The notes under the pieces: generated by a model
Databases searched by the model: none
Seen by the model: only the letters and a program-made list of their open reading frames with translations
Told to the model about the DNA's origin: nothing
From: Blasia pusilla
Lineage: Eukaryota
DNA length: 64,000 nt
Reading direction: 5' to 3'
Assembly (NCBI GenBank): GCA_050084515.1
Contig: CM114271.1
Location: 3,844,001-3,908,000, forward strand
Position numbers and translations under genes: made by a program
Shown: one piece after another, positions 176 through 63,780 of the stretch
How the letters are laid out: every line of letters begins with the position of its first letter
Numbering within the stretch: position 1 is the first letter of the stretch

Positions 176-1379
176 TTGTTCCAAGTCTTCATTTGGAAGG
201 ATCACCTAATTGAGGGGACCAAGTGGTTGGTGAAGATCTTTAAGCACGTCTGCCCAACACACACACAAGGACCCGAGCCAAGGAATCGCCTTAACAACCA
301 AGTAAGTACTAACCTTACAAAGAATCTTGAGATAATCCAAGTGAATGTTAGAGGCATAAGACTCAAAGGGGCGATGATCGGTGCATGGGGACAAACGAAC
401 GAGTGGGATATCATGGGGATCTTGGAAACCCTAGCCACCATATTCTCAATAAAAGGATACGAGGTAGTACAAGCACCACGTTCAAGAAGACTAGGAGAAT
501 TAGGAGTAGCAATGTCCATGCAACGTGGATTGCAAGTAAGAACGATTGAGATTGATCTGTGTTTCATCCTTGTAATGTTGAGGTTGGGGCGGCAAGAAGG
601 CAACGCATGGGTCATTGGAACAGTATATTTACAAGGGTGTCGCGCACAAGACCAAGCAAGGTAGAAAGCAACGGAACGCCTACGTCAGGAAATGGAAAAA
701 GTGTTTGCTAACTTTTCGAGTTGACATGTCATAATAGTGGATGATTTCAATAAAAAGGCCGCCATGGCTCCATCCTTGAGTTTGAATCTCCATGAGCACC
801 TACGATTTATCCCGGCGGCGGGGGACCCAAGATCAAAATACAAATGGACACAAAAAATGGCTCAACACATTGCCAATGCTGGAACCATACTTGACGTTAG
901 ATATTGTCATAGCCTTAGCGATCCCCGTCCTTCTCCCCCCACCCCCTGAAGGTGCTCCATGAGGTTGAAATAAGTCCAAATCATGGACCAATATGGGTGG
1001 AAGTCAAAGAAACGACCCACCCCCAACCTCAAGCATAATGGGCATTCAGGGTAAATGGAGACCAACTCAAGAAGGTGGATCCACTCAAGTTCCTGGCGGA
1101 TAGACAATGGAGGCAGATCATGAGCATGGAATAGATCGAATATGAGGAACTAATGCAAATAATGAGGAATATTACTAAGAGTTGGTGCCTTACGGAGAAC
1201 CTAAAGGAAATAAAGAGGGAGAGACAAGAGAAGCACCAAAGAAACCTCATACAGAAAGTGGAGCGCCTCAGGGAAAGCTCGAGATTTACAAGCGAGAGTG
1301 GGTGCACAGAGAATGACAGAGGAGAGGATCGCTGAAATTATGAGGGATCTGAAACGCACAATCCACGCCAAGAACAAGG
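176..1379 (+). mobile_element. Decayed LINE (non-LTR retrotransposon), 5' part with AP-endonuclease domain, interrupted by Gypsy element 1
   Basis: APE-like motifs IIQVNVRGI...WDIMGILET and VIIVDDFN (GDFN-like) in broken frames. The frame IHAKNK before 1380 continues as GRIQKRIQQR after 11082 once the insertion is removed. Confidence 0.75.
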
Positions 1380-2149
1380 TGTCGTGCGCATACACATCGC
1401 TACACAACATACATCGTTGTCATCAAACATACACATAAACACACACGATCCCATGCTAACTCATGTCATCCATACACATAGGCGAGAAGTACCAAAATAT
1501 CTCCAATAAAGTAAGATCCAATCTCTCTCTACATCATCTCACACTATAGCTCTCAAAGGTGTGCACTCTCTCTCATGTCAAACCAAACGCACTCTCCTAA
1601 TGAGAGGCTTGGGTTACACTCACAAGGCAAGGGACCATAGCTCCGCCGTCTCATGTCAAGAGGTTCAACAAAGAGAGAATGAGCTCTCAAGCTTTCTCTC
1701 CTTGAGGTATACCCCTCCCCTCTCCCAAGCTCTCTCCATGGTAACCTATGCTTCCAAGTCACCTCCTTGGCTCTTGACCTGATGTAGGAGGTCAAGGGCC
1801 ACTTACCAAAAATAGAAAGTCAACAATCCCCAATATGGAAACTTACCCGAAATAGTAAGTTTATCTATATGGCTCCAAATGAGCCGAAACGAAGGGGAAA
1901 CCTGCTCTCTTAGGTTTCTCAGGGCCTCAACAGGTCATTCTCAACCTCCTAGGCGTGTCCTCCACTACTCGTGAAGACGCTCTGCTAGATCCCACCGATT
2001 TATCCTAATAGTCGTGATAGTTGTCGTGCGCATACACATCGCTACACAACATACATCGTTGTCATCGAACACACACACAAACACACACGATCCCATGCTA
2101 ACTCATGGCATCCATACACAGAGGCGAGAAGTACCGAAATATCTCCAAT
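1380..2149 (-). repeat. 3' terminal block of element 1: Y2 (1380-1507), X2 (1508-2019), 2-bp spacer, Y1 (2022-2149)
   Basis: 1380-1507 and 2022-2149 are near-identical 128-bp direct repeats. 1508-2019 matches 10571-11082 (both 512 bp). Confidence 0.92.
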
Positions 2150-2335
2150 CGCCCCCCTAGCTGGTGGTTAGGTCCCTCTAACTCCAGATAGCCATCTATC
2201 CCTACCTACCACGACATACATCTCTAGGACGCTAAGAGCATAAAGGCCGGGTGCTCATGTGGCCCCATCGTTAGTCGCCTTCCTGTCATCCATGTCACAG
2301 AAAAAGTTGGAATCAAAACTTACCTAGTATCTCCT

Positions 2336-3724
2336 CTATGTACATCTGGGACACATCCATCGTCCCCGAGGAACCCTAGTGAGAGGTGGCGTCAGACATG
2401 CCATATGCCAACCTCTCAAACATCCATCACAGACTAGCATCGTGGCCGCACCATGGGTAGAACCACACAACATACAACGCAAGCCTGCAGGAACTACTGC
2501 TAAGCTTGGATCTACTATACCATCAATGTTAGGAAGGTGATATGGCGCACAATTACGCATATGGTCCTTCCATACCATACCATCGCGTTCCTCCAGCAAG
2601 AGAACATCGGATGGCAAAACATCACGCACTCTCAGGATAGTGCGCCATGCAATCACATCCAACGTCGTCGATGCCATCTGTTGGAAGTAGACATAATCTC
2701 CCTGATGAAACCTCCGGATAGTTGGTCGATAACCACCATCCCAAATAGTCGCATACCTCAACGCATCTCGATGCTGCGCAATCGCCAAGTTCTCGAACGC
2801 CATGGGCATCACTCTCCAAAACAACTCAGCCCTCTGAGAACATGCTTGCACCCATACATCTGGGTCATCAAGGTCTAGCACCTCACCAGCATCTCGACGA
2901 ATGGCCGCAGGTAAATCTGGCTCTCGGCCATAAAGTAGCAAGTATGGTGAAAAAGACGCTAAGGATGCATGCCTGCTGAATCTGTATCCCATCGCCAACC
3001 ATGGCAACTAGAGGTCCCAATCTCCTAGGTGATCTCTCTGCAAGCCATACTTGCATAAACCCCTCTTCACCGTCTGCACAACTCTCTTCGCTAATCCATC
3101 CGCCTCGGGATGATCTCGCGAAGTCGTGCGGTGGTTGATCAGCGCCTGATCACACAAGGCTTGGAACTCACCGCAAAACTCGGTACCCTAGTCTGTCAAC
3201 ACCTCAGCCGGTGTGCCATAATGACTTAGAACTCTGTCAAGGAAGGCATAAGCTACTCCCTCACTCGCTTTGTCAGGCAATGCAACCAACTCAATCCACT
3301 TCGAGAAGTGCTCGATCATCACCAACACATAACGACTGTGACGCTCCGTCAAAGGCAAAGGTCCTGCAAAATCCAAACTCCATCTATACCCTAAGCCCAT
3401 GATCGATAATGGATGCAATTATGGAGTCAGAGCATTGAATGATGCTCGGACCCGATCACACACCATGCACCTGGCAACAAACTACTGAACGTCAGTCTGC
3501 ATGCCTCGCCACCAATACTGAATCTGGAGCAAGCTGTAGGTCCGCTTCACCCCAAAGTGACCCAACTCCTCGTGGGCATGCTGCACTAGTCGTGCTCTCT
3601 GCAAAGGATGCAGCACTATGAGTACTTTGCCATCCTCCCAAACCCTCAAAACATGTGTCCCCTCCCAACGAAACCGTCTGGCCCGCTGTAGGAACCGATC
3701 CTCTAGCATCCACGGTGCTCGCAA
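2336..3724 (-). pseudogene. Retroviral-type DDE integrase with C-terminal PHD finger (PHD about 2339-2476)
   Basis: HAHEELGHFG...(C..C) zinc motif, WSLDFAGPLP, EVLTD*G.EF, PYLLLYGREP. The protein ends in CMLCGSTHGAATMLVCDGCLRGWHMACLTPPLTRVPRGRWMCPRC, a C4HC3 PHD. In-frame stops are present. Confidence 0.92.
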
Positions 3725-3899
3725 TGCAGCCAGTACGAAGGTACTCCAAGACTACTCCATCATCATGAATATCTCGGCCAACTCTCGTCTCCTCACTGGC
3801 CCCGGGATCCAAGGACTCTCCACTAGACCTCGCCATCAAAGTCTCCACACTCTGGCTCTCCATAGCCAACATGCCTAAATAGGCTCACGTGTGCCATCC

Positions 3900-5140
3900 T
3901 GGTACCGACTCCTCATCACCCTCTCCATGCCATCGAGCTCCAGTCGCATCTCATGACTCGGGCATGGGTTACGACTTAACCCATCTGCATCTTGGTTGAG
4001 CGTCCCACATATATGTACCACCTGAAAATCATACTCCTGCAACAATAGAGCCCATCTCGCAAGCTTCCCTGTAAGCTTGTCGGACTCCATCAACCACTTC
4101 AGTGGTTGATGATCAGTGATGATGGTAAAGGGGTTGCCGAATAAGTAACACTTGAAATGCGCGACAACCCACACCGGAGCGAAGCACTCACTCTCATAGG
4201 AGCTGTACTTTGCCTCTGTAGCGTTGTTTGAGCGGCTAGCGTAAGCCACCACAAATTCTCTACCCTCATCATCATGCTGGGTGAGCACCGCTCCAAGCCC
4301 CAACATGCTCCAATCTGTGTGCAACTGGAAAGGACGCCCCCTGATCGGTCTCCTCAAGATGGGCGCGGACGTCAACTTGTCCTTGAGCAACTGAAAGGCT
4401 CGCTCTTGCTCATCCCCCCAGTGCCACTCGTGATCCACCTTGGTCAGCAAGGTCAGCGGCTTCGCAATCGAACTAAATCCCGTGACGTATCGCCGATAGA
4501 AATTTGCAAACCCATGAATGCGCGAACACGACTCACATCTGTAGGGCGTGGAATGCGTGAGATAGCCTCTACCTTCATCTGCTGAACACCAAAGCCCCCT
4601 GGGTATATCATATGACCTAAGTACTCAATCTGGTCGTAGAAGAACTTGCACTTGCCTGGATGTAGCTTCAGCCTAGGTAATTGCAATCGTCGAAACACCT
4701 CCTCTAGATGTCGCTCATGCTCCTCAACCGTGGCACTAAAGACTACGATGTCATCAATATAACACCTAGCAAAATCCAGACCAGCCAAGATCCTATCCAT
4801 GACCCTCTGAAACTCAGGCGGGGCATTCGTTAACCCAAGTGGTAAGAACCGCCACTAGTACAAACAATCCTTCCCGTGAGGATCGATGCCCCAAAATGCC
4901 GTCTTCTTCCTGTCCTCCAATCTGATAGGCAGTTGATGGTATCCGGCTCGCAAATCCAATGAACAGAAGATCTTTGCGTGACCAATCGCATCAAAGATCT
5001 CCTCAGGGGTGGGCATGGCATACCTATCGGACTATCTGCCGATTGATAGGTCGGTAATCCCCACACATCTGCCTATCCGTCTAGTTGCCATGCACATCCT
5101 TCTTGGCGGGCATGACAGTGGCAGATGCATACTCCCCATA
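3900..5140 (-). pseudogene. Reverse transcriptase and RNase H (Ty3/Gypsy type), frameshifted
   Basis: RMCGDYR, CYIDDIVVFS, KLHPGKC, IEYLGH, LHTDWSMLGLGAVL, VVAYASR and TDHQPLKWL in ORFs 4453-4800 and 3875-4450 and flanking frames. Confidence 0.93.
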
Positions 5141-5719
5141 AGACATCTCCCCTAGTCTTGCTCCGACCAAGTCATGGCTCCTACTCTGAATCAGAGACCT
5201 CTCCATATCACTGTACCTATAGGGTCGTCGGAAGATCGGCATATCACTCGACAAACTCAATGCGGATCCCCAGTCGCTTCAGCGTACCCAAATCCTCCAT
5301 GCTAAACGCAAAGCAGCTCCTATAACTCCTGAGGAACTGATGTATTCGGTGCCGCTCTCCTCCTGTCAACTTAGGGCCCATATCTGGCTCCCAAGTCTCC
5401 ATCGTGACTACGGTAAGACTCTCCGGCGCGGATATCGGTGGTTGCTATGGTGCAACCCCGTCTCGAACAACAACACTCGATCGCTCTCCTGTAGCCAACT
5501 GCAAACTCCAATCTCCTCCACGTGCAGTGCCTGAAACCACGCTCGATGCTGTGGCTATCATCTCCTTGCGTACCTGCAAAACATCCCAAGAAGTTCAAGG
5601 GTGTTTCTCCCGATCTCCCTTGATGCATAGATCTCCTCGGGTCTTGCCCTGAGCCACTGCCTCCACTGTCTCGGTAGGCATGGGGCTCACCAACGCAACC
5701 ACTGTGATCTATCGCGATC

Positions 5720-6697
5720 TCATACGACACTGCTCAGCCACTCCCAAGCTGAGGATCCATGTCAAGCAGTTCAGGTCCATCGCCTGACCCAAGGCATGAC
5801 GTCGTGATGCCTCTAACACTGAGGGTACTGCCGTCACTCCTGTGGGAAATCCCATCGCTTGCTTTCTCTCGTCGGCGTTGGGCTCCACCAACCGCTGAAC
5901 CTGGTCATCCCAAACCAAGCCACGACCAGCCTCCTTGTATGCATAGAAAGTGGGAAAACTCACAAACGTGGGCAAGGCTGCCCGCGACCTACCTACTCTG
6001 TTGACCACAGTCAACGGTGGTCGATCATCGTGCCTCACTGCATGTGATCGACGACCTGGATCCAGAATGGAATCCACTAACAAATGGGAGGGGCGCTCCA
6101 CTCTCGCATACGCCCTCCATAACACCGCATGGGGCACCAAGTTGGTCCACCATAGACGCGGGCGATGGGCTCTAGAACCTACACTTGCCGCATCCAAGAA
6201 CACTGCTGGGCCGATCCAGGCTCGCTCTTGATGAGCACTCGTCACCACCCGTGACTTGGAGTCTCCTAAGATCGGCACATTCTCCAGAATGTAGGCTGGA
6301 GAACGAGACTGGTGCTCCTGCAACTGCCGTAAGACCCTCAACATCTCCCAATACAACTTGGATCGAGTGTCAGCCAACCCATTGCCTTGTCCAGCACTCG
6401 ATTGGCCCTAACATGGCCAACCGGAAATGACCAAATCAATGGTCCCTACCCGCTCTAAGTCCTGCGCCCCCAACAATGAAATATCCCTCGGTAGGGAACT
6501 CTGGTACCCTTGTACTGTGGACGCACATAATATGTCGGGAAAATGTAGGCATAACTCCACCACATGTCATAGTGAGACGCGCCTCGCAACATCATCACTC
6601 TCCACATACAGGTACTGCTGTACTCGCACTCCTGCCTCAAAACAATAGCTAACCCGGTGCTAATCCCTCCAAAGAGATCTAACACTCGAATACCCTC
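5720..6697 (-). pseudogene. C5 cytosine DNA methyltransferase domain embedded in the pol polyprotein of element 1
   Basis: Motif I IRVLDLFGGISTG, motif II YLYVE.D, motif IV DLVISGWPC*GQSSAG, GLADTRSKLY, motif VI YILENVP, motif VIII RAHRPRLWWTN, motif IX/X MGFP...RRHALGQAMD. One frameshift and two stops. Confidence 0.9.
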
Positions 6698-7099: not shown

Positions 7100-9229
7100 T
7101 TGTAGGATGCTGACTCCTCCCAATAATCTAGGGAAAACCCCATCGGATATAACACTGCTCCACCAACCAAGACGTCGTAGGACTCTGCATCAGTCACTAT
7201 CGCCTTGGCACGCACCACGGACTCATCTGTAGGATGTCCCGGGCGAATCCTCACTACGACCTCATGTCAGGTGATATACTGTGTGGTACTCGCTCCACCC
7301 AAGGATGTCTATATCCGAAATGGACAACGCTCCATATCGGCTCTCGTCAAGCCCAATCCTCTGAATGACGCTTTCTCCAACATCAGGGGTTGCGCTCCTG
7401 AATCCAACAAGACGCGCTGCGGACTAAAAGCTCTACCTACAAGACTCACCAACTGGAAGACCTCTCCTTGGTTATCCACCAACACAACACCAGGAGAAGC
7501 CATGACACGCTCTATCGCGGGTCTAGCGGGCATCTGCGCCATCCTAGCAGCCGCAGCCTGCCATGAATCTGACGTGAACGGTCTGAGCATCCGCTCCAAG
7601 GGCAGGTCCATCACCTCCTCTGCAATCACCTCTGAACATGATGCAGGAACTCCAACTCCGCGCCCACATAGCGAAGCGGCCAGCCGAAAAGCCTTGGTGG
7701 GCGTATCCCCCAACGTCATAACATCGGAAGCAGAAAATAAAGGAGTGCGGTAAACAACGGTGGCCGCTCCCAACAACGTGCTCGACACATGCCCCTCCTG
7801 AGCATCAACAATAGGAGTCGTCGCACTCGCTTCTTCCATCGCCCTCCGTGCCTGCACACCAACAACATCACCAACTCTCAAGGAACTTTGATGAGGACCC
7901 ATCGATGGGGTCCTCATCGCTTCGGACAACATGAAAGAGTGAGGAAGCCTAGTATGTTTTCTGGCTTCCCCTCGCTATGGATCCAACTCTACGGCTCCTC
8001 CACGTGTCACAATTGCGGCGGCCTCCATCTAGGCAACCCCGCACATCCAACCAAGATCCTCTAGATCTTTGGCTGCTCCATATGATGTCGATGCCACGGA
8101 TCCGGCATCGGAAAACCTCAATGCCATAGCGGCAATATGCTTATGTAGCTGCTATATCTGAGCAGCCATCCCAGCCTCACGTCCGGCGTCTCCCTCGGCG
8201 CGTCTAGGTGGTGGTACTCTACCTCCTCCACGGGCAGCTCCACCACCCTGTCGGGCAACTCCAGCTCCTTGTCCCCCAACGGGACCACCTGGTGCATGAT
8301 CTCTAGAACCGGACCGGCTACTCACTCTGGTGCCCTCTCTGGCCCTCGGTCCGGACGTAACTCAAGATGTAAACTCAAACATCTGGCGCGTGTATGACCA
8401 TACCTCTGACAATAGTCACACTGATAACCTCCTGGTGCAACACCATCTCCTCCTCCATACTGAGGCACACGTCCATGACCCTGATGAGTGCAATCGCGTT
8501 GATGATGGGCTCCACCATATGACCAACAAGTAATAGTAAGCGGCTGTTGCTAAGCCGCATATGAAGGTGCAGGTCTCTGTGGCACGGCCTCCCGGTATCC
8601 TCCCTGAGCTCGTGGTGCCACAGTCAACCTATCACGGAATCCACGTTGCTGCACAGGTGGTGCAAACAATCGCAATTGCTCTCGCCCACAACCCATGGTG
8701 GTTACGCTCTCCTTCGCCATGTTGCGCTCAATGTTCTCGGCGGTCCTAAAAACATCTTTCAACGTAGCGGAGGTGTTCATAAGAAGCACCCCCTCCCGCA
8801 CCCGTGTCCGCAGGGTCCGGTCCAGCATCGCGTACCATGACTGGATAGCCTGAGCCTGAGTCACCCCCTGAGTGACCTTGATCAACCTTGATCCTTTTAG
8901 TGCTGGGAGTCGCTCCAACTCCTAAACTCTGCTATGAAATTCTGCAACTTAATCGTGCCTACTGCACCTAAAAACCTACGTGGTCCTCCACCCCGATCGT
9001 CCATCTCGTACGCCCAACTGGTAGGACCACTCACAATGTGTGGCGATGTGCTCAAAAACTCCTCTACACCCTCCCCCTCGTCTGACGATGACACAGAAGG
9101 AGGTCGAGGTGGTCCCTCAGGTGGAGACCCTCGAAACCTCACGCCACTTTGCATAAAACCTCTAGAGCTACTCTTGGGTTCACCACCTCGCCTCTCAAAG
9201 TCCCGAATGGATGCGGTGATGACCCTCAT
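7100..9229 (-). pseudogene. Gag (two CCHC zinc knuckles, about 8380-8535) and aspartic protease of element 1
   Basis: ITCWSYGGAHHQRDC and YQCDYCQRYGHTRQMF knuckles (CWSC and HTRAKC in element 3) and protease RVLLDSGAQ...DVLVG. About 420 bp of gag present in element 3 (about 53180-53600) is missing near 8890. Confidence 0.85.
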
Positions 9230-9990: not shown

Positions 9991-10570
9991 TGGCGACGGC
10001 GCTGCCAACGGCAGCTGCTGCTTTAGGATTTTGATTTTTACTCTAAAATTGGCAGTTTACAAAATTGGCCATAAAGTTTTGCTCGCAGCTCTAAATTGTG
10101 CACCATCTGTTGCACAACGTGCACAGCTTTAAGATCTAGAATGGCGTTAAAAATTTTTTGAATCGGAAAATCCTATAAAAACTGATGGGGACTGTCGTAA
10201 ACCCCAACGTCTCTTTCTTCTACCCAACATTCGGCAGTGCTTCCGAGTTGATTTCTCCCAACAAAAATGTAAAACTTGTGAAAAGAAAAATTAGAAAGCT
10301 ACATGGTGCTCCCAAGAGCACCATGTAGCTTTCTAATTCATTTGAGTGTGTGGGTAATCCGCCCACACACTCAAATTCTACCAACATTTGGGGAACGCTT
10401 CCGCGCGTCACTCTCCCGTACGAAAAAATGGTAAAGGAAAACAGCAAACTGAATGACTCTTGCTCTCGTGAGCACTCCCATGAGTCATGAAGCAGGGAAC
10501 ATGGTCCCTAACCTGCAAACACAGCGAAACTCTAGCAAGCTCCGCATTGTAGCTCTCATTCTCTCTTTGT

Positions 10571-11082
10571 AAAGTAAGATCGAATCTCTCTCTACACCAT
10601 CTCACACCATAGCTCTCAAAGGTGTGCACTCTCTCTCATGTCAAACCAAACGCACTGTCCTAATGAGAGGCTTGGGTTACACTCACAAGGCAAGGGACCA
10701 TAGCTCCGCCGCCTCATGCCAAGAGGTTCAACAAAGAGAGAATGAGCTCTCAAGCTTTCTCTCCTTGAGGTATACCCCTCCCCTCTCCCAAGCTCTCTCC
10801 ATGGTAACCTATGCTTCCAAGTCACCTCCTTGGCTCTTGACATGATGTAGGAGGTCAAGGGCCACTTACCAAAAATAGAAAGTCAACAATCCCCTATATG
10901 GAAACTTACCCGAAATAGTAAGTTTATCTATATGGCTCCAAATGAGCCGAAACGAAGGGGAAACCTGCTCTCTCAGGTTTCCCAGGGCCTCAATAGGTCA
11001 TTCTAGACCTCTTGGGCATGTCCTACACTACTTGTGAAGACGCTTTGCTAGATCCCACCGATCTATCCTAACAGTCGTGACA
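10571..11082 (-). repeat. 5' terminal repeat X1 of element 1 (not followed by Y)
   Basis: Matches 1508-2019, 55200-55711 and (inverted) 51326-51841. Confidence 0.92.
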
Positions 11083-23672: not shown

Positions 23673-23902
23673 TGCTTTTGAAGCATGTTATCTTTTGTGT
23701 TAACTCATTCCTTACGGTTCTTGTTTTTCCTTGTATTAAGTAGGATCAAGAATGTCGATGCGATACATACAAGGTTGCGTATGGACAAAGTGTGTGTCCG
23801 TGGACTTACGTCCGTCCTATAGAAGGAATTTTTCATATGATCCTTAGGTCCCCCTTCTTTCTCATCCCCTTCAGTTGCCTTTGTGATTGCCACTTTCTCG
23901 TT

Positions 23903-25819
23903 TGTCATGACCATACGGATTATGTCGTAGAGTATGGTGTGCTGGTAGAGGCCATTCCTTATGTAGGACCGTAGTGGCTTGGTAGAGATGCGGTTCCATA
24001 CATAGGGTTGGGGGTTACTCACTTGGGGGTGACTTTCCTAGTAGGGCCCGCTCTTAGGTTGGAGGATATAAGGTGGCTTGCCCTCAAAGAACAGTTAGTT
24101 CTTTGAGTTGAGCCTGTTGCGTTGGGAGTTAGCCTTGGTAGTGAGTAGAGCTCTTGGCTATGGTGTTTCCGCAAGACCCGACCTAGATTCTCCCCATCGT
24201 GGAGTGGGTTTGGCTCGATTGTATGTGATTAAGCGTGTTTTATGACATGGAGGTCTTTCACGGATTTCACTCAAAGAACTCGAGTAGATCGATGGTAGCT
24301 TCGATTGTAGATCAGTATGATGTGGTTAGGGCTGATTGTGTACTCAGCCGTGGATTTTCGTGGCTTGTGGCCTATGTTGGAGGTGTGAATCTGGTGCGCG
24401 GTTGGTAGGGAAAGAAGCGCCTTGCTGAGAGCTTTCCAACGCGCTTTAGATCGCGGATTTTGTCAAGGGAGTTGGAAGTTATCAAGGATTGAAGATTCTG
24501 GTTCGTGTTCGACGGTTTTCGATGTGCTTGGAGAGCTTGGAGTCGGAAGCGTGTGTTGAAGTTCATCCAGATCAGGTGAGAGGTTCCTGTTGCTACTCAT
24601 ATTGTGATCTCCTGTGAATCTATCTGCTCGAGTGTGTGGAGCGTTGCGGATTTCTGCGTGCATGAAACTTGGTGGAAGCGCTGTCGGATTTGCGATTCTG
24701 GAGGTGTATGGACAGCAAGTTTGTTTGATTTTTAGCTCGGAGTACAGAGCTGGGTTGTAGCTGATTTTTTGTGGAGAGATAGCTATGGTGGTCAATTGAA
24801 TTCTGATTGAAACAGATTTGATTTCGGTCACGTATTTGTGAAGTAATTTTTGATCGAAATTTTTCAGACTAGCTCAAGGTCTGTGGCTATGGTGGACAGC
24901 GGATCAGAGGGGCTTGTGTGGATCTACTGGTAACGCAGCCCGTATGTTGGTGTGTGATCGGTATTCTAGGGGTTGGCACATGATGTGTTTGACTCCACGT
25001 TTGGATGTTGTTCCTATTGGAAGGTGGGTTTGTCCTCGATGTACTTAGGAGAGGTAGATGACTTGATCTTTGCATGATATGGATTACGGATGTGCGACTA
25101 ACGATGGGGCAACCTAGCACCCGGCCTAAGTTCTTCCGATTCGGGCACCCAAGAAGGTGTATAGCATGTAGTAGATGTATAGGGCTACAGGAGTTAGAGG
25201 GACCTAACCGCTTGATTAGAAGGGGCGAGTTGTGGTACACTTGCGTTTGTGGATACTCTCGTCTATGTTATGTATGTATGGACAATGCGTATGGTATGTC
25301 GATGTATGTTGTATGCGATGTGAATTCGACGACATTTGTCATGACCATACGGATTATGTCGTAGAGTATGGTGTGTGGTAGTAGAGGCCATTCCTTATGT
25401 AGGACCGTAGTGGCTTGGTAGAGATGCGGTTCCATACATAGGGTTGGGGTTACTCACTTGGGGGTGACTTTCCTAGTAGGGCCCGCTCTTAGGTTGGAGG
25501 ATATAAGGTGGCTTGCCCTCAAAAACGATTAGTTGAGAACACATATCTTTGAGTTGAGCTGTTGCGTTGGGAGTTAGCCTTGGTAGTGAGTAGAGCTCTT
25601 GGCTATGGTGTTTCCCAAGCTTCGACCTAGATTCTCCCATCGTGGAGTGGGTTTGGCTCGATTGTATGTGATTTAAACGTGTTTTATGACAAAGAGGTCT
25701 TTCACTGATTTCAGTTGTGGTACACTTGCGTTTGTGGATACTCTCGTCTATGTTATGTATGTATGTGCGTATGGTATGTCAGCGATGTATGTTGTATGAT
25801 GATGTGGATTCGCACGACA
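23903..25819 (+). mobile_element. Non-autonomous deletion derivative of a second subfamily of the PHD-Gypsy lineage, with split direct repeats
   Basis: X1 23903-24269, Y1 25229-25334, spacer TT, X2 25337-25713, Y2 25714-25819. TGTCA...CGACA termini and flanks CGTT/CATT (4-bp TSD with one transition). Retains PHD-coding sequence. Confidence 0.9.
24914..25048 (+). pseudogene. PHD finger remnant (end of pol)
   Basis: Translates LCGSTGNAARMLVCDRYSRGWHMMCLTPRLDVVPIGRWVCPRCT*, clearly homologous to the C-terminus of element 1. Confidence 0.9.
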
Positions 25820-26037
25820 CATTTCTTCCTCCCTCTTATTTTCAACCGGCCTTCCTTTCATAATTACTAGCAAGTTGCTTGTGCTATCCATAAGAGTACA
25901 CATTATTCCTTGACTTAGCTCTCTTCCATTCTAATTTAACTCCTTAAAATGACATGTGTTATCATGAAAGAAGTCCTTAAAGGATAAATGTGGACCTCAA
26001 AAGGAGGGATTCTACATACCCATCCTCTCTTAATGGT

Positions 26038-30686: not shown

Positions 30687-31894
30687 TTATGCCAGGGCTG
30701 TCAAGGAAGGCTCCAATACCCAGCAGAGCAGCACGTAGCCGAACTCCAAATTTGCAGTGCAGGTGCTTGTGTTGGTGGAAAAATCGCGGACGATGAACTC
30801 CAAACGAGTTCGGCATTTCCCTTGAGTTTGGAACTCCCGGATGAAGCAAATAAGTTCTCCGGCTCCGACACAAGATGAATTTTGCACATCGTCCCCATTA
30901 TGTCTTACCAGCTTGACGGTGAGAGGCTTAGGCATCTTCTTTTGTTCAAGGCGGATTTTCTGGCCCGATTCGTGTAACGTACAAGCCCTTCCTTCTTCTG
31001 TCATCAGCACTAGCTGACTGCGGTGCTCTAAGATCCGGACGTCCCAGCCATAACTCGCCAAGAGCAGTGTCGCCCAAGAATCCTTCTCGACGTCATACTT
31101 GAACAATCGAGGACAGCACCGGTCATCATCATCTGCAACCCAATAAAGTGCCCCTTTCCAAGGAATTCCGGGCTTCCGAGAGAAGCAACTGCTGGGAAGT
31201 CTGGGAGAATTGGCGCCTCTGCTCCAAGAACGTTCTCGAGAGTCATACACAAGTGTGGTGCGCTGAGAAGGGTCGTACGTCTCGGCAATGATCAGCTTGT
31301 AGTTCCCGGTGTCCTTGCAAACCATCAGACCAACTAGCAAATGCTCCATGGGACGATGATAATCCGCAGGACGATTGCAATCATTCGGTGGCAAGGCCAG
31401 ATATGGCTCGTCGCTGTCAGGCATGGCAGATGCAGCACTCTCCAGCGCTTCGTCACCGGATTACACACAACAAATTGCGAACATGTATAAGTCGATAGAC
31501 AGAGCAGTCCTCCACCTGACGCGGCCATCTCCCAGGATCCCATAGAGGGGTCCAACCTCAGAAAAGACAGAGACAGCTGCGACCAAGTGTTCCTCCGCGC
31601 GTCGTACGCCGTGAAATACCGATCGTCCGCAGTACCAGCGGCTGGCGTGAAAAAGGTGAAGTGGAACGGAACGCACTTAGCCGGGCAATCTTCCGCAGGT
31701 GTGAAATTTGGCGACAAGATCAGCTCATTCCATCTCTTGCATACAGTGCGACACTTCACTACACTGGAGAGTGGTAGCTTCGTTAACACCCGTTCCATCA
31801 GATCCTCGGGCAACGACGACCACAAATCCGAATTCAGCACCCGTCTGCTGCCCTCCACCACGCCCCCTCGCCCCCTCGGTCTCAGAAAATACAT
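30687..31894 (-). pseudogene. Plant F-box (kelch/FBA-like) protein gene with one frameshift near 31425
   Basis: F-box LWSSLPEDLMERVLTKLP...CRTVCKRWNELI, then ASGGGLLCL and VVCNPVTKRWRVL. It continues in another frame with YKLIIA, TLVYDSRERSWS, GALYW and YDVEKDSW. ATG at 31894. Confidence 0.85.
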
Positions 31895-33346
31895 AGTGCA
31901 GACAATGAGCGAGATCGAGACAGCGAAGGAGAAAGAGCAAAGAACACGCCACCGTCGAGATCCGGAGAAAGTGAGCAGGACGTCGAGATGCGTAGTAGTA
32001 GTAGTATCCGATGCAAATCCCCCGACGACCACCAGGTAAATTCCTTCGCGTTGATATTGCAGCAATTGGTTCAAATTTCTCCTCACGATTCTAAACCCCT
32101 AGATGAACAAGACCAGATGTGCAGATGAAGGAAGTTAAAACCCGAAACAAAATCTCCCGACGACCACCAGGTAGATTCCTTCGCGGCGAGATCGCAGCAA
32201 TTGACTCAATACTGTCCTCGCGATCGTAGACCCCTAGATAAGTACGAGATACGCGGTTGAAGATGGTGACGACTCTCTCCTACGCCCGCTTACGACACTT
32301 AGCCCCGTTCGCGCAGAAGTAAGCAGAAACGTCCTCTGCCTATCGGTAAGATGATACCTGAAACAGACGCCGCCTGAGTGCGATTACATACTTCTCATTG
32401 GGGCTTCCGAAGCGCGTCAAATTTGACCTTCGAGCTTACATTGACGTTGGCATTTATCTTGCGGGGCATTCCATGGATGCCGCTGTAGAGGTAGGGTTTA
32501 CAAACAAACCTGTCGAAGTTTAGGGTAAACACACGACAACAAGGCTAGGGTCGCCGTTTAGTTTAGGGTTAATGCCCCACGAATAGCACGACATTCGGGA
32601 AGAGTGCTTCCAACTCATTAGGGTTCGACAAATCCATGGACGGTAGGGTTTTCGTTGCTCTCCATGTTAGGGCTCGCGGTGTGGACGAGCCTTTGCACTC
32701 GGAAGATCGCAACTCTAGACTTAGGGTTTAACAGGTATGGGTTCGATCGGAACAAACGGTTCATAGTGGGACATTTGCGGTTCGGAAATCTTCAGAGCTC
32801 TGAGGTTCATCATGATCGCTGTCTGTAAACGAAGACAGCCAGCGGTGCTGCTTCGAGTTAGGGTTGTACACGCTGACACACAACAACGACGTGAGTGCAG
32901 AATCCCACCTCTTCCATCATTTCTTCGATGATTGTCGGTCGAAATGACCATAAGAGCATAGGATGTTGAAACAGGATCCACGCAGACATGGCTGCGAAAG
33001 AAATGTCTCGCCTATTCCGCCTAGGGTTTTAGAACCTGCACCATACGTGGAACGCAAGTACGACCCTTGCGGTTGCGATAGCTCTTAGGTGAGCTTCTGC
33101 CTCAGTACGAGTCCGGCAGAGTGTGCAGGAACTCTCTGCTCACTCTCTAGCAGAAAGCGAACTCCTGTACCACGATCCAACAGTTCTAGATGGAGATGAT
33201 GTTGTGCCCTTCCAACCCTCGAGCATCTCTCACGTGAAAAGCATGAATCGTGTCTCCTGTCACGAAGCTCACGAGAACTAAATGAACCGGCTAACTGCGG
33301 TTAATTCTCGGGGCTGGCGATGATTCTGTTCTGGACGTGATTTAGA

Positions 33347-33575: not shown

Positions 33576-34651
33576 TTTGGGGTGGACGGCGAACGAGATG
33601 TGTTACTACTGTACAGTAGTGGTGTGCAGCTGATGGACGGCGCTGTGAGGTTCCAACTACGGCGGCTCCAAGCACCGCCGTAGGGCTTCACGGCGATTGC
33701 CGTATGAGTCTAGGAGCCGTGGTGATAAACGGGACATGGGGGCAGTGTCGCTGTCCTAAATGGCACGGAGCTCTTGTACGGAGAAGATTCGAAGTGGTGA
33801 TGGTGGTGGGGGGTTGCACTTGAATCCGCTCTAGATCCACTTAGAAGCCGTTGTGATAGGATTACTCGAACTTAGGTCTGCAACTTGCGAGCGTAATGGA
33901 GTGCTATGTCTGATGTTGGTTGGGGCATACGAAGATGCTCCATTATGTATGGGTCTAATCGAGGATGGGGGATAGTGGAGATCCATGGCCTGGTTTTTGG
34001 GGTTTTATTAATTTAATGTCCCCATAGTATATTGAAATAATACTAACACGGGGTGCATGGTGAACGAAAATGGAGTGGATACAAACACTAACACGGCATG
34101 GAATACTAATATGAAAATTTTTAAGAGTGGATAAGTATTAACGCGGAGCAAAATGAGTCCAAATGTCTTTATTTTGGCTCACATCGGACGGTTGAGAAAT
34201 GAAGTCTTCAAATCGACTTAACGCCCAAGTGGCGGCAGAAGAGAATATGGCCTAGAAGTAGGCTATTTTTTTCTTCTCTATCTTCTAGGGATTCCCCTTT
34301 TTATTTGTGCCCAAGGGGTTGGGTGTAGTCTTTGTCGCGGGCATACACGAGTCACATTGTGAGTCACATTCGCACAACAAAAATTATCGATCTTTCCAAC
34401 ATATGGATAGATCATACACATAAATAATATACTCATACGCCAAGAAAAAATTGAAATAAGAAGGATTGATATAACCAACTCCACTCCCAAGTCTAGATAC
34501 ACATATCAAGTCACATCCATCCTCTGTTATGAGGGAATCCATATTGTAGCCCTTAAGCTCCTACCAAATCTTAAACACGTGAGTATTCCCAAGTCTCAAC
34601 ATGAGAATGTGAAAGTCATCTCCACTAACTTTAGTAAGAGTTAGGATAAGA

Positions 34652-36602
34652 GGACCTACATCTTGCTCCAGATACAGTATTGGTGGCAATGTATGCAGAC
34701 TGACGTTCAACTGTTTCTTGCTAGGTGCATGGTTTGTGATCGGGTCCGGGCATCGTTCAATGCTCCGACTCCACAGTTGCATCCACTTTCGATCATGGGT
34801 TTAGGTTATAGATGGAGTTTGTATTTTGCAAGACTTTTACTCGACACGGTGGTGGAGCTTCTCGTGGAGGAGGTAGAGTCCCACCACCTAGACGCGTCAA
34901 GGGAGACGTCGAGCGTGAGGCTGGGATGGTTGCTCAGATACAGCAACTATAGGAGCAGATTGTTGCTATGGCATTGAGGTTACTCGATGCCGGATCCGTG
35001 GCATCGACATCATAAGGAGCAGCCAGAGATATGGAGGATCCTGGTTGGGTGTGCGGGGTTTCCCAGATGGAGGCCGCCGTAGTTGTGACACGTGGAGCGG
35101 CCGCAGAGTTGGATCCACAGCGAGGGGAAGCCAGAAAACATACCAGGCTTCCTCAATCTTTCACGTTGTCTAAGGCGATGAGGACCCCATCGATGGGTCC
35201 TTATGAGAGTTCCTGGAGAGTTGGTGATGTTGTTGGTGTGCAGGCATGGAGGGTGATGGGAGAAGCAAGTGCGACGACTCCTATTGCTGATGCTCAAGAG
35301 GGGCATGTGTCCAGCACCTTGTTGGAGGCGGCCACCGTTGTGTACCGCGCTCCTTTATTTTCTGTTTCTGATGTTATAACTTTGGGAGGTACGTCCGCCT
35401 CGGTTTTTCGGCTGGCCGCTACGATATGTGAGCGTGGAGTTGGAGTTCCTGCATCACATTCAAAGGTGATTGCAGAGGAGGTGATGGACCTGCCCTTGGA
35501 GCTGATGCTTGGGCCGTCCACGTTAGATTCAAGGCAGGCTGCGGGTGCTAGGATGGCGGAGATGCCCGCTAGACCCACGATAGAGTGTGTCATGGCTTCT
35601 CCTGGTGTTGTTTTTTTGGATAACCGGAGAGAGGTCTTCCAGTTGGTGAGTCCATCCGGTAGAGCTTTTAGTCCGCAGCGTATCTTGTTGGATTCAGGAG
35701 CGCAACCCCTGATGTTGGGGAAATTGTCATTTAGAGGAGTGGATTTGACGAGAGCCAATGTAGAGGGTTGTCCATTCCGGATATAGACATCCTTGGGTGG
35801 AGTGAGTACCACATAGTATATCACCCGACAAGAGGTCGTGGTGAGGATTCGCTCGGGACATCCTACAGATGAGTCCGTGGTGCGAGCCCAGGCAATAGTG
35901 ACTGATGTAGAGTCCTACGATGTCTTGGTTGGTGGAGTAGTGTTATACCCAATGGGGTTTTCCTTGGATTACTGGGAGGAGTCAACGTCCTACAGACCAT
36001 GATGGCAGTCAAGTGATGGGCGCCTTAGCTCATTACTCGTTCGATTCATAGGTGCAGTGATCGAGCGACGGCCAGCGGAGATGGCGACCTTAGCGGCATT
36101 TAGTAGTGCCATCACTTGGCCTAGTGATTTGATTGAGGGACATGTCCATGCAGAGGATACTCCCATTCTTAACATTTCTATGGAGAGGAAGTGTCATGGT
36201 AGCCACATCAATCCGTGGAGGAGAGGTGCTGCTTTGGGGCTCGATTGAGGAGCTTCGACGCTTAGCCACTGTAAGCATGTGCAGACTGCGTGGAGCAAGA
36301 CGTTTGCACTAGAGTGTGATAGGTCAGAGGAACCCCAAGTAGTCAGGAGTGCTGCTATGACCCCTTTGGACACCACCCCGATTGTGTGGTGTATCCAAGA
36401 GGAGAGTATTCGGGTGTTGGATCTCTTTGGAGGGATCAGCAGCGGGTTAGCCGCTGTTTTATACGATGGAGTGCAAATGCAATAACACCTGTATGTGGAG
36501 ATTGATGATGTTGCGAGGCGCGCTTCACTTCACCATGTGGTGTAGTTACACATCCGGTTTCCCGACTTATTATCTGCGTCCGCCATTCAGGGTTACCAGA
36601 GC
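34652..36602 (+). mobile_element. Element 2: internal fragment of the DNMT-Gypsy family (integrase piece fused to gag end, protease and MTase N-terminus)
   Basis: 34652-34835 matches the integrase region of element 1 (LLQIQYWW...LGYRWSL). 34848-36602 matches gag end, RILLDSGAQ and IRVLDLFGGISSG. Confidence 0.88.
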
Positions 36603-44757: not shown

Positions 44758-47012
44758 TTACACATCCACAACAACTTCACTTGGGTCTAAGGCATTTAAA
44801 TTTACGCGAACTTCTGGTGGAATTTCTATCTCAAGAATATATCTCTCGGGATTGGCATACACATACCTAAAGTGTGCTGAATTCTTCCAAAGAACTACAG
44901 ATTCAACCAACAAACCTTCATAATCATCTATTTTCCCCTCCAAGGCAATCCTAAGAACAACATCCAAATGCTTTGTCATTAACCTATTCCTACTTTTAGT
45001 CTTGATCACATTTTGCACAGAGAAAGCTCTCTCACAAATAGCAGTACTAACACACTGTACCCTAGCAATATTCGCTAAAATGAGCAAGTTAGAGAACTTA
45101 CATTGCAAGGACGGGCTCCAACTTACCATAGCCCACAAGTCCTTGAAGTTCCGATCTTTCCACTCCGTCGTGGCCATGAGCTTAAATGATTGAAACTCTT
45201 GTTTCACAGCTCCTACACTCATTAAAGAAGGTTGCAAGTGACCTTTGAAGGGTAAGTCTGTCCCAAAATGTGCAGAGAGGTCATCCAATTCCTTACAACC
45301 CCAACTATTTAGTCCCACTTGCCTTGAAGGCATGTGCAGAGGATTCATTATCCTCATAGCACTAATCAAGTTGTTATCCCTAAACCGATCTCGTAAAGCT
45401 ACACAAACACTCTCAGAAAAATTCTTCTGAAACAACAAGGCAGCCTCTAGATCCTTTCCTGTCCGATTCCTCAACATTTCTATGTTGTGGAACTTTCTGC
45501 CCCTAATCTCAGATTGTAAACGTTTCAAGTAACCCCCTGAAGGACCAAAGTCTGGTAGAATGTGATAACCACTTTCTTCAGAGAAAGTGGAGGCATTCAG
45601 ATCAGGGTTCTCCATTACAAAATTCATTGTTATGGAAGCTATTTCAGAAGTCACTATACTACCTATGGTACTAACATCTACAAACTTATATTGGAACACC
45701 TTACTCAAGTTAGCAAGAAGAAACAAAATATCTGCCAAAAAGTACAGTTGATAGATCATCTGAAATGATCTGAGCTTGTTATACAAATTTGCAGCATAAC
45801 CATCATCTTCCGAAGGCGAGATATCTCTGAAATATGCAAGGATAGATTCCAGTGAGTCACATAAAGTAGTAACAGCCTGCCAACGCGACAACCAGCGAAT
45901 CTTGTGGTACCTCTTCATCACTTTATGAGAATCGTTCAACTTTTCTTGCAAAGTTGCAAGACCACACTTCCTCTTGGACGACCTTCTAAAATATCCAGCT
46001 ACTGCATTCAAAATTGAATCTACTTCTATAGATATTTCCTTACACCCTACACCTTTTGTTGTTAAAAAGCGGCGAGATTAAATCTGTCGCCCACACAATG
46101 CACAGACAACATAAAAGGATTTATCTTATGTTTCAGCTGAGATGCTACTCCGTTTTGGCTTCCTACCATAGTAGAAGCTCCATCAGATCCAAAGGTAACC
46201 AGTTTTGATCCCTCAAGTCCCGAATCCTTTATCAACTCCAACAAATTGTTAGTGATTGCGTTTGAACATTCCTCTGGACATTGGAGCAATCCTATAAAAC
46301 AACTCTCTACTTGCCCCTCATCTAAGTAAGTTGCAAATACAACAAGATGTCCAGTGGTGGATATATCGTGGACTCGTCAATCATTATCCCAAAGAAAGGA
46401 GATTGTTGCACTTTAGAAAGGTTCCTCCTGAGAAGAACCTGGCTAATATAAAAACACATAGCAGCACAACTTTTTTCATCTTGGTACAAGTCGGGATATA
46501 GGTGCATTCACAGATATCAATAACTTACACAGATTTGAGAACTTTGAAAATGGCAGGGCTTCCTTTGCAACGAAATATGCACATTTGAACAGAGTCAAAA
46601 GTGCAATATCACAAGTCCGATTTGTGGTGGCTATAGCCTTGGCCATGGATATGTTCCCCACATTCGTAGCCCATGCAAGCTTCATGTGCTCATTCGACTT
46701 ACCATGATCTGTGAAGGCCGAAACCTTACAGTTAATGGCACCATCCCTGGCAAAGGAGCTTTTCCCCTTACCCTGTCTACAGACTTTGCAAAAAATCCGA
46801 CCAGATTCTACATGGAATTCTATCCAATCGAACAAAGTATACCAAACATCCTTCCAAGCCAATCTATTTTTCTCACTCTGACTTGTCGGATGAGTATTTG
46901 ATTTGTCCCCTTCTCTCCCATCCGATGATCTTGACCTACTGTTCTCCTCTGCAAGGTCTTGACTAACTTCCTTGTGTAGCATCTCATTCATTGTTCGCTG
47001 TCTCTTAGCCAT
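44758..47012 (-). pseudogene. hAT-superfamily transposase (ZNF862/DUF4371-like with hAT C-terminal dimerisation domain), frameshifted
   Basis: N-terminal W...FDWI...IFCKVC...H..S..H zinc finger, FFGIMIDEST, FGSDGASTMVG, SVHCV, IRWLS and VSTAICERAFSVQNVIKTKSRNRL across four ORF pieces. Confidence 0.9.
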
Positions 47013-47579
47013 GTAGAGGCTCAGAGAATGCAGAACAAAGTTCACTAATGTAATCCAAACCCGCGAGCCCTACTGCCCTACCCAAGGCTCCACCTGGGAA
47101 AAACTCTAAGCGAAGCTGTGCAAGCTGCACAACATAAACCTGTCACTTAGTAGGTGCTAATGAAACAATGGAGCTCAAGAAAATGTGGATCTGAAAAGTA
47201 CTCAAGACTCGGCAAAAGATACAATGCCAATGCAATGTGAGCCAGAGCTGTCGATACTCAAGCTGGGGGGAAGATGGGGGATGGCGGGAGGGCAGGGAGG
47301 GGCTTGGAAAGAAGCAGACAGGCAGCAGCGGCGCCGGATCCCTGTCCCTCCCGTTGTAGTTCCCTTCTCTCGAACCCAATCAAAGTCTGCAGTTCAAACA
47401 AGGCACATAGCGAGCAGCAACGAGAGAGCACCAAAAAGCACCTACCTCACAGCGACGCGCAGCAACAAACAAGATAGCATGCGGGTGGAATGGCAAGATA
47501 AAGAAAATTCGAAAGCTCAAGCGAGCTTTGCTTGGATTCAGGAGGTATTGACAGGGATACAGTGGCGGACCTCCGCTCT

Positions 47580-50288: not shown

Positions 50289-50418
50289 CGTTAGGGGAGG
50301 GAATGCCCCTTCTTCCTTTTTGGTCGTGTTGTGGCCTTCAGGTTTTGACTCTTTGAGTCCCCCTCTTTTGTACTTCCGATGGGTTTCCCATCACTCGTTT
50401 TTATCGAAGTGCATCTTT
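50289..50418 (+). repeat. Dispersed 130-bp repeat, also at 21719-21848 (minus) and partially at 63595-63675
   Basis: Shared core ggttttgactctttgagtccccctcttttgtacttccgatgggttt.ccatcac.cgtttttatcgaa.tgcatc. Confidence 0.85.
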
Positions 50419-55087: not shown

Positions 55088-55711
55088 TGTCGTGCGCATA
55101 CACATCGCTACACAACATACATCGCTGTCACCGAACACGCATGATCCCATGCTAACTCATGGCATCCAAACAACGAGAAGTACCAAAATATCTCCAATTA
55201 AAGTAAGCTCCAATCTCTCTCTACACCATCTCACACCATAGCTCTCAAAGGTGTGCACTCTCTCTCATGTCAAACCAAACCCACTCTCCTAATGAGAGGC
55301 TCGGGTTACACTCACAAGGCAAGGGACCATAGCTCCGCCGCCTCATGCCAAGAGGTTCAACAAAAGAGAATGAGCTCTCAAGCTCTCTCTCCTTGAGATA
55401 TACCCTTCCCCTCTCCCAAGCTCTCTCCATGGTAACCTATTCTCCCAAGTCACCTCCTTGGCTCTTGACCTGATATAGGAGGTCAAGGGCCACTTACCAA
55501 AAATAGAAAGTCGATCATATACTCAAAATGGTACTTACCTAAAATAGTAAGTTCCTCAATATGGCTCCAAATGAGCCGAAACGAAGGGGAAACCTGCTCT
55601 CTCAGGTTTCCCGGTGCCTCAGCGCGTCATCCGCGACCTACTGAGCATGTCCTCCACTACTCACGCAGGCGCTCTATTAGATCTCACCGATCTATCCTAA
55701 AAGACGTGACA
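55088..55711 (-). mobile_element. Solo X-Y terminal unit of the same family inserted into element 3
   Basis: Homologous to 1380-2019. TGTCGTG...CGTGACA termini with perfect 4-bp TSD TTGG, splitting the protease codons VLL|DSG. Confidence 0.93.
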
Positions 55712-56259
55712 TTGGATTCAGGAGTGCAATCCCTGATGTTGGGGAAAACGTCATTAAGAGGATTGGGCTTGACGAGAGCGGATGTGGAGCATTGTCCATT
55801 CCGGATACAGACATCCTTGGGTGGAGCGAGTACCACATAGTATATCACCCAACATGAGGTCGTGGTGAGGATTCGCCCGGGACATCCTACAGATGAGTCC
55901 GTGGTGCGAGCCAAGGCGATAGTGATTGATGCAGCATTTAGCAGCGCCATCACGTGGCCTTAGTGATCGCCATCACGTGGCCTTAGTGATTTGATTGGGG
56001 GACATGTCCATGCAGGGGACAACCCCGGTCTTGACACCCCTGTGGAGAGGAGTGTTATGGTAGCCGCATCATTCCGTGGAGGAGAGGTGCCGTTGTGGGG
56101 CTCGACTGAGCAGCTTCGACGATTGGCAGATGAGCACGTGCAGACCGCGTGGAGCGAGGCATTTGCACCAGAGCATGATGGGTCTGAGGAACCCGAGGTA
56201 GCAGGGAGTGCTAGGATGACACCCTTGGATACCACACCCATTGTGTGGCGTATCCCGGA

Positions 56260-63469: not shown

Positions 63470-63780
63470 TACTTTGAGAAAGAAATTCTGAGACTTTTTA
63501 TTGTTATATTTTTAGGCTAATGGGATTTTGAAGAGGATTAGAAAGCTCTCTTGTTGTTTTTTTCTGTGATTTCATGTTAGGGGGAATGTACTATTTCAGG
63601 TTTTGACTCTTTGAGTCCCCCTCTTTTGTACTCCGATGGGTTTTCCATCACTCGTTTTTATCGAAGTGCATCTTTTCGTTTTGAGAAAGAAATTCTGAGA
63701 CTTTTTATTGTTATATTTTTTACAATGTTTAGAAGGATTAGAAATTATTTTTTTCTGTATTTCATGTGTACTATTTCAAC
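63470..63780. repeat. Local AT-rich duplication flanking a copy of the dispersed repeat
   Basis: tttgagaaagaaattctgagactttttattgttatattttt...ggattagaaa...tttcatgt...tgtactatttca occurs twice. Confidence 0.7.

Follow-up and report, generated by a model that had tools for sequence, protein, structure and literature searches.

A Ty3/gypsy family of Blasia pusilla with split terminal repeats appears to integrate at a site within its own U3 region

Here, we analyzed 64,000 nucleotides of the Blasia pusilla genome (assembly GCA_050084515.1, contig CM114271.1, positions 3,844,001 to 3,908,000 of the forward strand; this whole stretch is called the window), in which a decayed retrotransposon, element 1, represents a high-copy family of Ty3/gypsy long terminal repeat (LTR) elements. 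The terminal repeat is split into two parts, X and Y, and the layout X-internal-Y-nn-X-Y (nn being a short spacer), with TG...CA ends and 4-bp target-site duplications (TSDs), is the rule for this family. We consider it probable, if far from certain, that these are self-priming elements whose replicated LTR reads Y-nn-X (the first part of the unique 3' region, U3a; an attachment site, att; then U3b, the repeat R and the unique 5' region U5), that their complementary DNA (cDNA) is first closed into a circle, and that the integrase then acts at the internal att site. An original prediction, made from the letters of the window, had proposed integration from a circular cDNA cut at an att site inside the repeat; what our analysis adds is a signal for self-priming, by which the right end of the cDNA would be set, and the cutting of the site on the side of the primer-binding site (PBS) only.

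Split terminal repeats and insertion ends

Self-comparison of element 1, which spans 9.7 kb on the minus strand (11082 to 1380), gave the order X1, internal region, Y1, 2-nt spacer, X2, Y2 (Table 1). A short element on the plus strand (element 2, 23903-25819) has the same layout in a different sequence and defines subfamily 2; its flanks (23899-23902 and 25820-25823) form a 4-bp duplication with one mismatch. The Y1/X2 junctions read in the original prediction, CA-tt-TG in element 2 (25333-25338) and CA-ac-TA in element 1 (minus strand, 2023-2018), are exact in the sequence. Across the 390-Mb genome, to which all genome-wide pattern counts refer, the exact 19-nt att pattern matched 607 times and the subfamily-2 att pattern 726 times, and two patterns for the joint between X2 and Y2 (the X/Y joint) matched 1236 times (subfamily 1) and 888 times (subfamily 2). 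Considering that each of the reversed-pattern controls gave 0 matches, the att and joint patterns do not occur by chance. TSDs were analyzed in 10 kb upstream of 20 copies and in element 1 (21 in total), from which six without a usable 5' end were dropped. Of the 15 two-ended copies that remained, 14 have a 4-bp TSD (8 exact, 6 with one mismatch) and 1 fails, and flank identity is 83% at 4 bp versus 30-31% at 3, 5 and 6 bp. The TG...CA termini with their 4-bp TSD are the integrase ends. For a solo X/Y unit in the window, a paralogous empty site at 35688-35691 carries the 4 bp once. This empty site lies in a fragment of the family's internal region without terminal repeats (34648-36601), and the solo unit itself lies in a further plus-strand copy (51325-57506) that has an X1 start and, within the window, no polypurine tract (PPT) or Y end.

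The domains of element 1 follow the order gag, protease, reverse transcriptase, RNase H and integrase, as in Ty3/gypsy LTR retrotransposons, with the protease recognized by motif only. The natural open frame of another copy (L229) aligns to the integrases of Ty3 (E=6e-22; D/D/E at 379/439/474) and of prototype foamy virus (PFV), catalytic residues included, and among solved structures the integrase best matches Ty3. The C5 cytosine methyltransferase fragment within pol is placed by its Atlas features at 0.96 to a DNA-methylase cluster, and PF00145 is also present in homologous polyproteins (e.g., P0012 and P0040). Neither 64 frames of decayed element 1 nor the Pfam lists of the best 120 among 379 homologues contained a tyrosine recombinase. 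When the family is set against the definitions of known groups, the two complete, collinear LTRs of Ty3/gypsy elements are absent, there being no YnnX...YnnX insertion in the anchored sets of copies. The split direct repeats A-internal-B-A-B of DIRS-type elements are present, but their tyrosine recombinase is not; the self-primer of at least 10 bp of the Tf1/sushi and Tcn1 elements is present, but a PHD finger follows the integrase instead of a chromodomain; and a C5 methyltransferase lies within Pol, as in KnitGypsy-Dnmt3. We conclude that the family is a gypsy variant and not a DIRS element. Troyka was rejected as a family name, since Troyka elements are defined by CG...CG termini and a 3-bp TSD (PMC12440569, in the passages available), whereas TG...CA and 4 bp are found here. 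Named homologues come from Coleochaete and volvocine algae, and a Coleochaete protein is 74% identical over the integrase region. A close polyprotein homologue labelled as an uncultured cyanobacterium (P0151, in the cluster of P0006) is probably mis-binned eukaryotic DNA.

Priming, the X/Y joint and the internal site

No tRNA primer site is apparent: such a site would begin with TGG, and the bases after X1 do not. They are perfectly complementary to part of X, about 30 nt past a TATA-like box. This self-primer is perfect over at least 13 bp in 23 of 30 subfamily-1 copies, and over at least 10 bp in 19 of 20 subfamily-2 copies, where its sequence is different. The leader of element 1 folds with z=-3.5, and two relatives from other hosts have the same fold (z=-4.4 and -2.2). 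By the criterion described for Tf1-type self-priming (PMC6317226, in the part available), we infer that the minus strand is primed in a Tf1-like manner. For the other cDNA end, the purine tract ending in GGGGCGA that the original prediction placed before Y1 in both subfamilies is indeed there (minus strand, 2149-2160; plus strand, 25219-25228); we assigned its final A to Y rather than to the tract, because joints that retain the tract hold GGGGGCG or CG before that A. Considering that the right end of the cDNA would be set by the self-primer and its left end by the PPT, the replicated LTR should read Y-nn-X. A linear cDNA that already had the TG/CA ends of the integrated form would have spoken against an internal site, and the predicted cDNA ends are not TG/CA. 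In three RNA runs with the same species label, the family has 1500-2200 reads each, mostly in element sense and including reads from X into the PBS.

Flush joining of the predicted primer and PPT ends gives the commonest X/Y joint in two subfamilies. The difference of 1 nt noted between element 1 and the solo unit is real (one A at 1507, two at 55199-55198). Among 80 complete copies of subfamily 1, 54 joints are flush, 21 have one extra A and 5 have other forms. The first 100 listed of the 1236 subfamily-1 joints, scored by eye, comprise 73 of base length, 22 that are one longer, four that are two longer (three AC, one AG) and one with ACAA, while the first 100 listed of the 888 subfamily-2 joints, also scored by eye, comprise 94 of base length, 3 with an extra A, and one each with ACTC, with CG and shorter. 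These extra letters match the copy's own subfamily, in that AC and ACAA are the first letters of the subfamily-1 PBS, ACTC those of the subfamily-2 PBS and CG the last letters of the PPT; two copies (L126 and L180) even kept seven PPT letters at the joint. On a tree of Y1+X2, the joint type has no signal (22 changes, 22.1 when shuffled; p=0.59), and 8 of 9 polymorphic Y2 columns do have signal (1-10 changes versus about 25). Y1 and Y2 are closer within a copy (distance 0.054) than across copies (0.084), minor transversions of Y1 recur in the same copy's Y2 in 106 of 196 cases (48 expected), the clade types of Y1 and Y2 agree in 79 of the 80 copies, and, after correction, Y1 cannot be told from Y2 by any column (lowest p=0.025 among 129). 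The copy's own Y2 is the nearest one in only 11 of 80 copies, as expected for short, decayed, star-like families. Because longer joints hold PBS or PPT letters, the joint has no tree signal and Y2 tracks its own Y1, these junction statistics show that Y2 is recopied together with Y1 and that the joint is remade from the cDNA ends at every insertion, with the integrase acting at the internal CA-nn-TG.

The spacer of the att site is purine-pyrimidine in 73 of the 80 copies, and in 86 (subfamily 1) and 81 (subfamily 2) of the first 100 listed sites. By eye, the first 100 listed of the 607 subfamily-1 sites, found with a pattern that admits 2-nt spacers only, have AC (39), GT (23), GC (12), AT (12) and other spacers (14), and the first 100 of the 726 subfamily-2 sites have GC (35), GT (22), AC (20), AT (4), TT (4), other 2-nt spacers (4), spacers of 3-4 nt (10) and of 1 nt (1). 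A GC spacer makes the att site a 10-bp palindrome, and one or two C-to-T changes convert that spacer to AC, GT or AT; the four spacer states have no tree signal (37 changes, 37.4 when shuffled), and each of the two positions is in CTG context and decays strongly. Because of the purine-pyrimidine bias, the one or two C-to-T changes from GC and the CTG-context decay, we conclude that the spacer is templated and decays afterwards, and is not donor flank. A donor-excision circle of the IS911 type, in which the spacer would be random flank, was rejected on the same listed sites. The combination that the original prediction had named as evidence against itself, an invariant joint with a randomly varying spacer, is not what was found. 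Its expectation of a variable joint held, and that of a fixed nn did not, as GC, AC, GT and AT all occur; nor is nn strictly a dinucleotide, given the minority of subfamily-2 copies with spacers of 1-4 nt. In 24 young copies, the spacer positions are the most mutated CHG sites (H being A, C or T; 0.30 each, mean 0.084). A role of the spacer as a special AGCT methylation target was rejected, since values of 0.25-0.26 occur at other CTG sites and those at the remaining AGCT sites are low; because ordinary CTG decay suffices, there is no support for marking by the methylase of the element. A strict requirement for the GC palindrome was not shown, as T-rich spacers cluster on the tree in a query-biased set. 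Across the same 24 young Y1-nn-X2 copies, CTG cytosines decay more than CAG or CG, which hints at uneven CHG methylation in the host.

If the other att site were cut, the product would be a mirror form, X/Y-nn-X-PBS-internal-Y. This form was found in 0 of 95 anchored loci (0 of 45 att-anchored, 0 of 30 X/PBS-anchored and 0 of 20 subfamily-2 loci; a few loci may be shared between the sets, and X is truncated in nine of the 45 att-anchored loci). If all 95 loci are counted as independent, mirror-image copies make up no more than about 3%. Since the plain two-LTR circle of the original prediction would give about half mirror-image insertions, the counts show that the PBS-side att alone is cut and that site choice is directed. 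The mirror form could not transpose again, so that the bias would be adaptive. Tandem forms with Y-nn-X between two internal stretches exist (L057, L122 and possibly L347), and four of 30 PPT-anchored copies stop at Y1, of which two are X-internal-Y with a TSD and two have no 5' end within 10 kb.

Order of events and competing explanations

The circle-first reading would comprise the following events. Judging from the anatomy of the copies, the RNA would start about 30 nt past the TATA box in X1, and its 5' end would pair with the PBS to prime the minus strand, with the plus strand primed by the PPT. Standard LTR reverse transcription would yield a linear YnnX-internal-YnnX, both ends of which, as the junction statistics show, are joined flush, sometimes with primer or PPT letters, to form the X/Y joint. 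At the att of the PBS-side LTR, the DDE (Asp-Asp-Glu) integrase would nick after CA on each strand, a chemistry suggested by its product; the 2-nt spacer would be lost, and strand transfer would create the TG...CA ends and the 4-bp duplication. Joining probably precedes integration, which would make a two-LTR circle the substrate. The PPT-side att is spared, so that PPT-U3-R stays intact and the progeny can transpose again. The geometry of the original prediction, with a cut at an internal att, therefore stands; genomic copies are compatible with either order of end joining and strand transfer.

It is this order that is reversed if the integrase opens the left att of the linear YnnX-internal-YnnX and inserts it, with host end-joining sealing the natural ends later and no free circle being formed. 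Such a sequence yields the same product with the same PBS and PPT remnants, and end proximity could explain the bias, the distance to a cDNA end being about 100-130 bp for the used site and about 280-510 bp for the spared one. However, the joints are mostly flush (54 of 80; 28 of 30 in another set) with few deletions, where less tidy products would be expected from the repair of a broken chromosome, and intact TSDs link both halves; we therefore regard insertion before sealing as rather unlikely, albeit as a serious alternative. Less probable still, in our opinion, is that reverse transcriptase closes the molecule, with one shared A allowing the plus strand to jump from the right end to the left and to copy Y up to the left att, to give a nicked circle or an over-length cDNA that hands the left att to the integrase. 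PBS and Y both start with A in both subfamilies, which provides a 1-nt microhomology at the joint, and the jump would account for the strict use of the PBS-side site, but joints retaining 2-7 PPT or 2-4 PBS letters resemble ligated unfinished ends, and some relatives (L251, L311) start Y with G and have no shared A. We assign a very low probability to a cycle like that of PAT or Ngaro, in which a tyrosine recombinase integrates the circle, or Y2 derives from the parent's Y2 through a read-through transcript. The A-coding-B-A-B order is indeed the DIRS-type layout (PMC5890265, in the passages available), and some subfamily-2 copies have Y1 lesions that are missing from Y2; no recombinase domain was found in the frames and lists searched, though, the TSDs are variable 4-bp sequences next to TG...CA ends, no column separates Y1 from Y2 after correction, and the joint is not inherited. 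Finally, it is scarcely credible that an ordinary LTR element acquired the layout after insertion, by nesting, recombination or mis-assembly: while the region is heavily nested and decayed, and solo X/Y, X-internal-Y and tandem forms exist, the layout occurs in hundreds of independent loci, in two subfamilies and in other hosts, each with its own TSD, and ordinary YnnX...YnnX insertions do not occur in the anchored sets.

Several observations weigh against the circle-first reading. All evidence comes from decayed genomic copies, with no circle or cDNA among it. The reads of the three RNA runs have no sharp start or end, and none at the predicted primer, and most are less than 95% alike; in the leader of element 2, the helix forms but the whole fold is not significant (z=-1.1). 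The commonest extra joint letter is a lone A, which could equally be an untemplated addition or slippage. Given the 0 of 95 mirror forms, a free circle with two identical att sites needs an extra asymmetry. Moreover, among 30 subfamily-2 copies chosen by likeness to element 2, with a query that held Y1 and not Y2, eleven have T-rich spacers, cluster on the tree (4 changes versus 9.2) and share small Y1 lesions missing from their own Y2, and in one copy (L003) the clade of X1 differs from that of its X2, Y1 and Y2. Neither the Y1-only lesions nor this chimera follow from a single-template cycle. Ascertainment may explain part of the Y1-only lesions, the alternative being a lineage with a left LTR from a second template.

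Known systems, relatives and other features of the window

The layout has already been recorded for KnitGypsy-Dnmt3 of Klebsormidium nitens (de Mendoza et al. 2018), which likewise has Gypsy domains and a C5 methyltransferase inside Pol, and for which the legend of Fig. 4c gives DIRS-like repeats A-coding-B-A-B (PMC5890265, in the passages available). Unlike the present account, those passages describe neither a TSD nor an att site, and neither a priming signal nor a mechanism; the available main text contains neither PHD nor 'circular'; kinship with the Blasia family is by architecture only. A mechanism for split or permuted gypsy repeats was not found in the literature searched, which held only this 2018 legend, with supplements, theses, Repbase and most subscription journals outside reach. 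New here are the self-primer, the cDNA-end origin of the joint and the one-sided use of the internal site. The Tf1/sushi elements and the plant Tcn1 chromoviruses share with the Blasia family the self-primer at the RNA 5' end, the PBS just after the 5' repeat and the Ty3/gypsy domain order, but they have two whole LTRs, the CA at the U5 end by the PBS and a chromodomain (PMC6317226; 10.1101/2022.12.06.519325, both in the parts available), whereas the Blasia family has its att inside U3 and a PHD-finger tail. Gypsy-7a_cRei of Chlamydomonas reinhardtii, compared by description and therefore a lead only, has a PHD finger and a left LTR without the last 8 bp of the right LTR, unequal LTRs such as a very short Y would give, and is active in laboratory strains (PMC9940879, in the part available). 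The integrase of human immunodeficiency virus (HIV) can cut a palindromic two-LTR junction (PMC1905944; PMC4372172, in the parts available); at this circle junction, a DDE integrase (HIV-1, foamy virus) likewise opens a near-palindromic CA-spacer-TG in continuous DNA to give CA-3' ends. There, the site is created by end ligation and serves as a back-up route, whereas in the Blasia family U3 itself contains the site as a templated sequence, apart from the end joint, and its use is apparently the normal route. By analogy, the family appears to work like retroviral circle-junction integration made the main route. In IS3/IS911 elements, a DDE enzyme cuts abutted ends across a short spacer of random donor flank, unlike the templated, purine-pyrimidine spacer described here. 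PAT, Ngaro and TOC1 are presumed to have a circular intermediate and use a tyrosine recombinase, in contrast to the DDE integrase, TG...CA ends and 4-bp TSDs of the Blasia family. They share with it the A-internal-B-A-B repeats (PMC5890265, in the passages available).

Among the 51 of 80 metagenome loci that were examined, 21 (some redundant) have a Y...Y repeat after the integrase with similar PPT and att letters, and 30, short or decayed, do not. Five of these relatives reach X1; they are 59-78% identical over the integrase, have the methylase and the same layout, and four of them have a 4-bp TSD by eye. Viral contigs scanned with an algal homologue gave no match. The terminal repeats of four autonomous metagenome relatives (L257, L265, L272 and L310) are much closer to subfamily 2 of the window than to subfamily 1.

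In the standard view, LTR elements insert their linear cDNA by its ends, and two-LTR circles count as by-products, or as a back-up at most. On the circle-first reading, thousands of natural insertions would bear witness to an integrase that passes over the cDNA ends in favour of an internal site, and each copy would still contain the joined ends. The old question of the circle as an integration precursor, reportedly proposed in 1984, becomes testable in an element where the circle would be the main route, and a new question is posed, namely how one of two identical sites is chosen. Programs that seek two matching LTRs should mis-call or miss such families, which may explain their sparse description. 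A wider proposal, to which we give an even chance, is that in a gypsy clade of green algae, charophytes and non-seed plants the two-LTR circle is obligatory, that the integrase site has moved from the cDNA ends to a templated U3 palindrome, that one of two identical sites is always picked, possibly because the second one is marked, be it by the methyltransferase that the element encodes or by the order in which the strands are made, and that the DIRS layout is convergent with a DDE enzyme.

Table 1. Features of the family in the window (window coordinates)
Feature	Position	Strand	Evidence or remark
Element 1 TSD, 3' copy, 4 bp	1376..1379	.	identical to 11083-11086
Element 1 Y2, outer copy of U3 5' part; terminal CA is the right end	1380..1507	-	95% identity to Y1; TSD next after CA
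Element 1 X/Y joint, read as joined cDNA ends	boundary 1508/1507	-	joint statistics
Element 1 X2, remaining U3 + R + U5	1508..2019	-	96% identity to X1
Element 1 retained att site CA-nn-TG, here CA-AC-TA	2018..2023	-	spacer 2021-2020
Element 1 Y1, first 128 nt of U3, directly 3' of PPT	2022..2149	-	
Element 1 PPT, 3' end GGGGGCG, putative plus-strand primer	2150..2158	-	same tract also before Y1 of subfamily 2 and of relatives in other hosts
Integrase (H2C2 zinc finger, rve core) with C-terminal PHD finger, broken	2339..3751	-	Pfam PF17921, PF00665, PF00628
Reverse transcriptase C-terminal part and RNase H, broken	3878..4854	-	PF00078, PF17917, PF17919
C5 cytosine methyltransferase fragment within pol	5712..6407	-	PF00145 E=1.4e-4, just under curated cut-off
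Gag zinc knuckle and aspartic-protease-like remnants, broken	7312..8921	-	PF16588 weak; LDSG motif by eye, no Pfam match
Element 1 PBS, 16 nt complementary to a stretch within X, not a tRNA site	10555..10570	-	
Element 1 X1, left end, first bases TG	10571..11082	-	TATA-like box at about 10774
Element 1 predicted self-primer, RNA 5' end	10731..10746	-	perfect 16-bp complement of PBS; fold z=-3.5
Element 1 TSD, 5' copy	11083..11086	.	identical to 1376-1379
Element 2 X1	23903..24268	+	TATAA at 24067; self-primer 24097-24108
Element 2 PBS, 12 nt	24269..24280	+	
Element 2 PPT (to 25227), Y1 (25228-25334), retained att CA-TT-TG (25333-25338)	25219..25338	+	
Element 2 X2 (to 25712) and Y2 (25713-25819)	25337..25819	+	
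Solo X/Y unit with 4-bp TSD	55088..55711	-	sits within another copy's internal region

Outside the family, the window contains two tRNA-Met genes 344 bp apart (14364-14435 and 14708-14781), with a third, decayed partial copy at about 14980-15025, and frames for DnaJ (16114-17193), an F-box/Kelch protein (31334-32098), a hAT-like transposase with a zinc finger (44758-47069) and a cytochrome P450 (61219-62859). A tandem array of units of about 145 bp lies at 18125-18984, and a dispersed repeat of 80-130 bp is present in three copies in both orientations (21719-21848, 50289-50418 and 63595-63675). At another locus of the family (L164-L166; G000:C1:7356262-7361356), a 1036-bp unit in which a subfamily-2 X1 abuts a subfamily-1 X/Y end is repeated in tandem at least three times.
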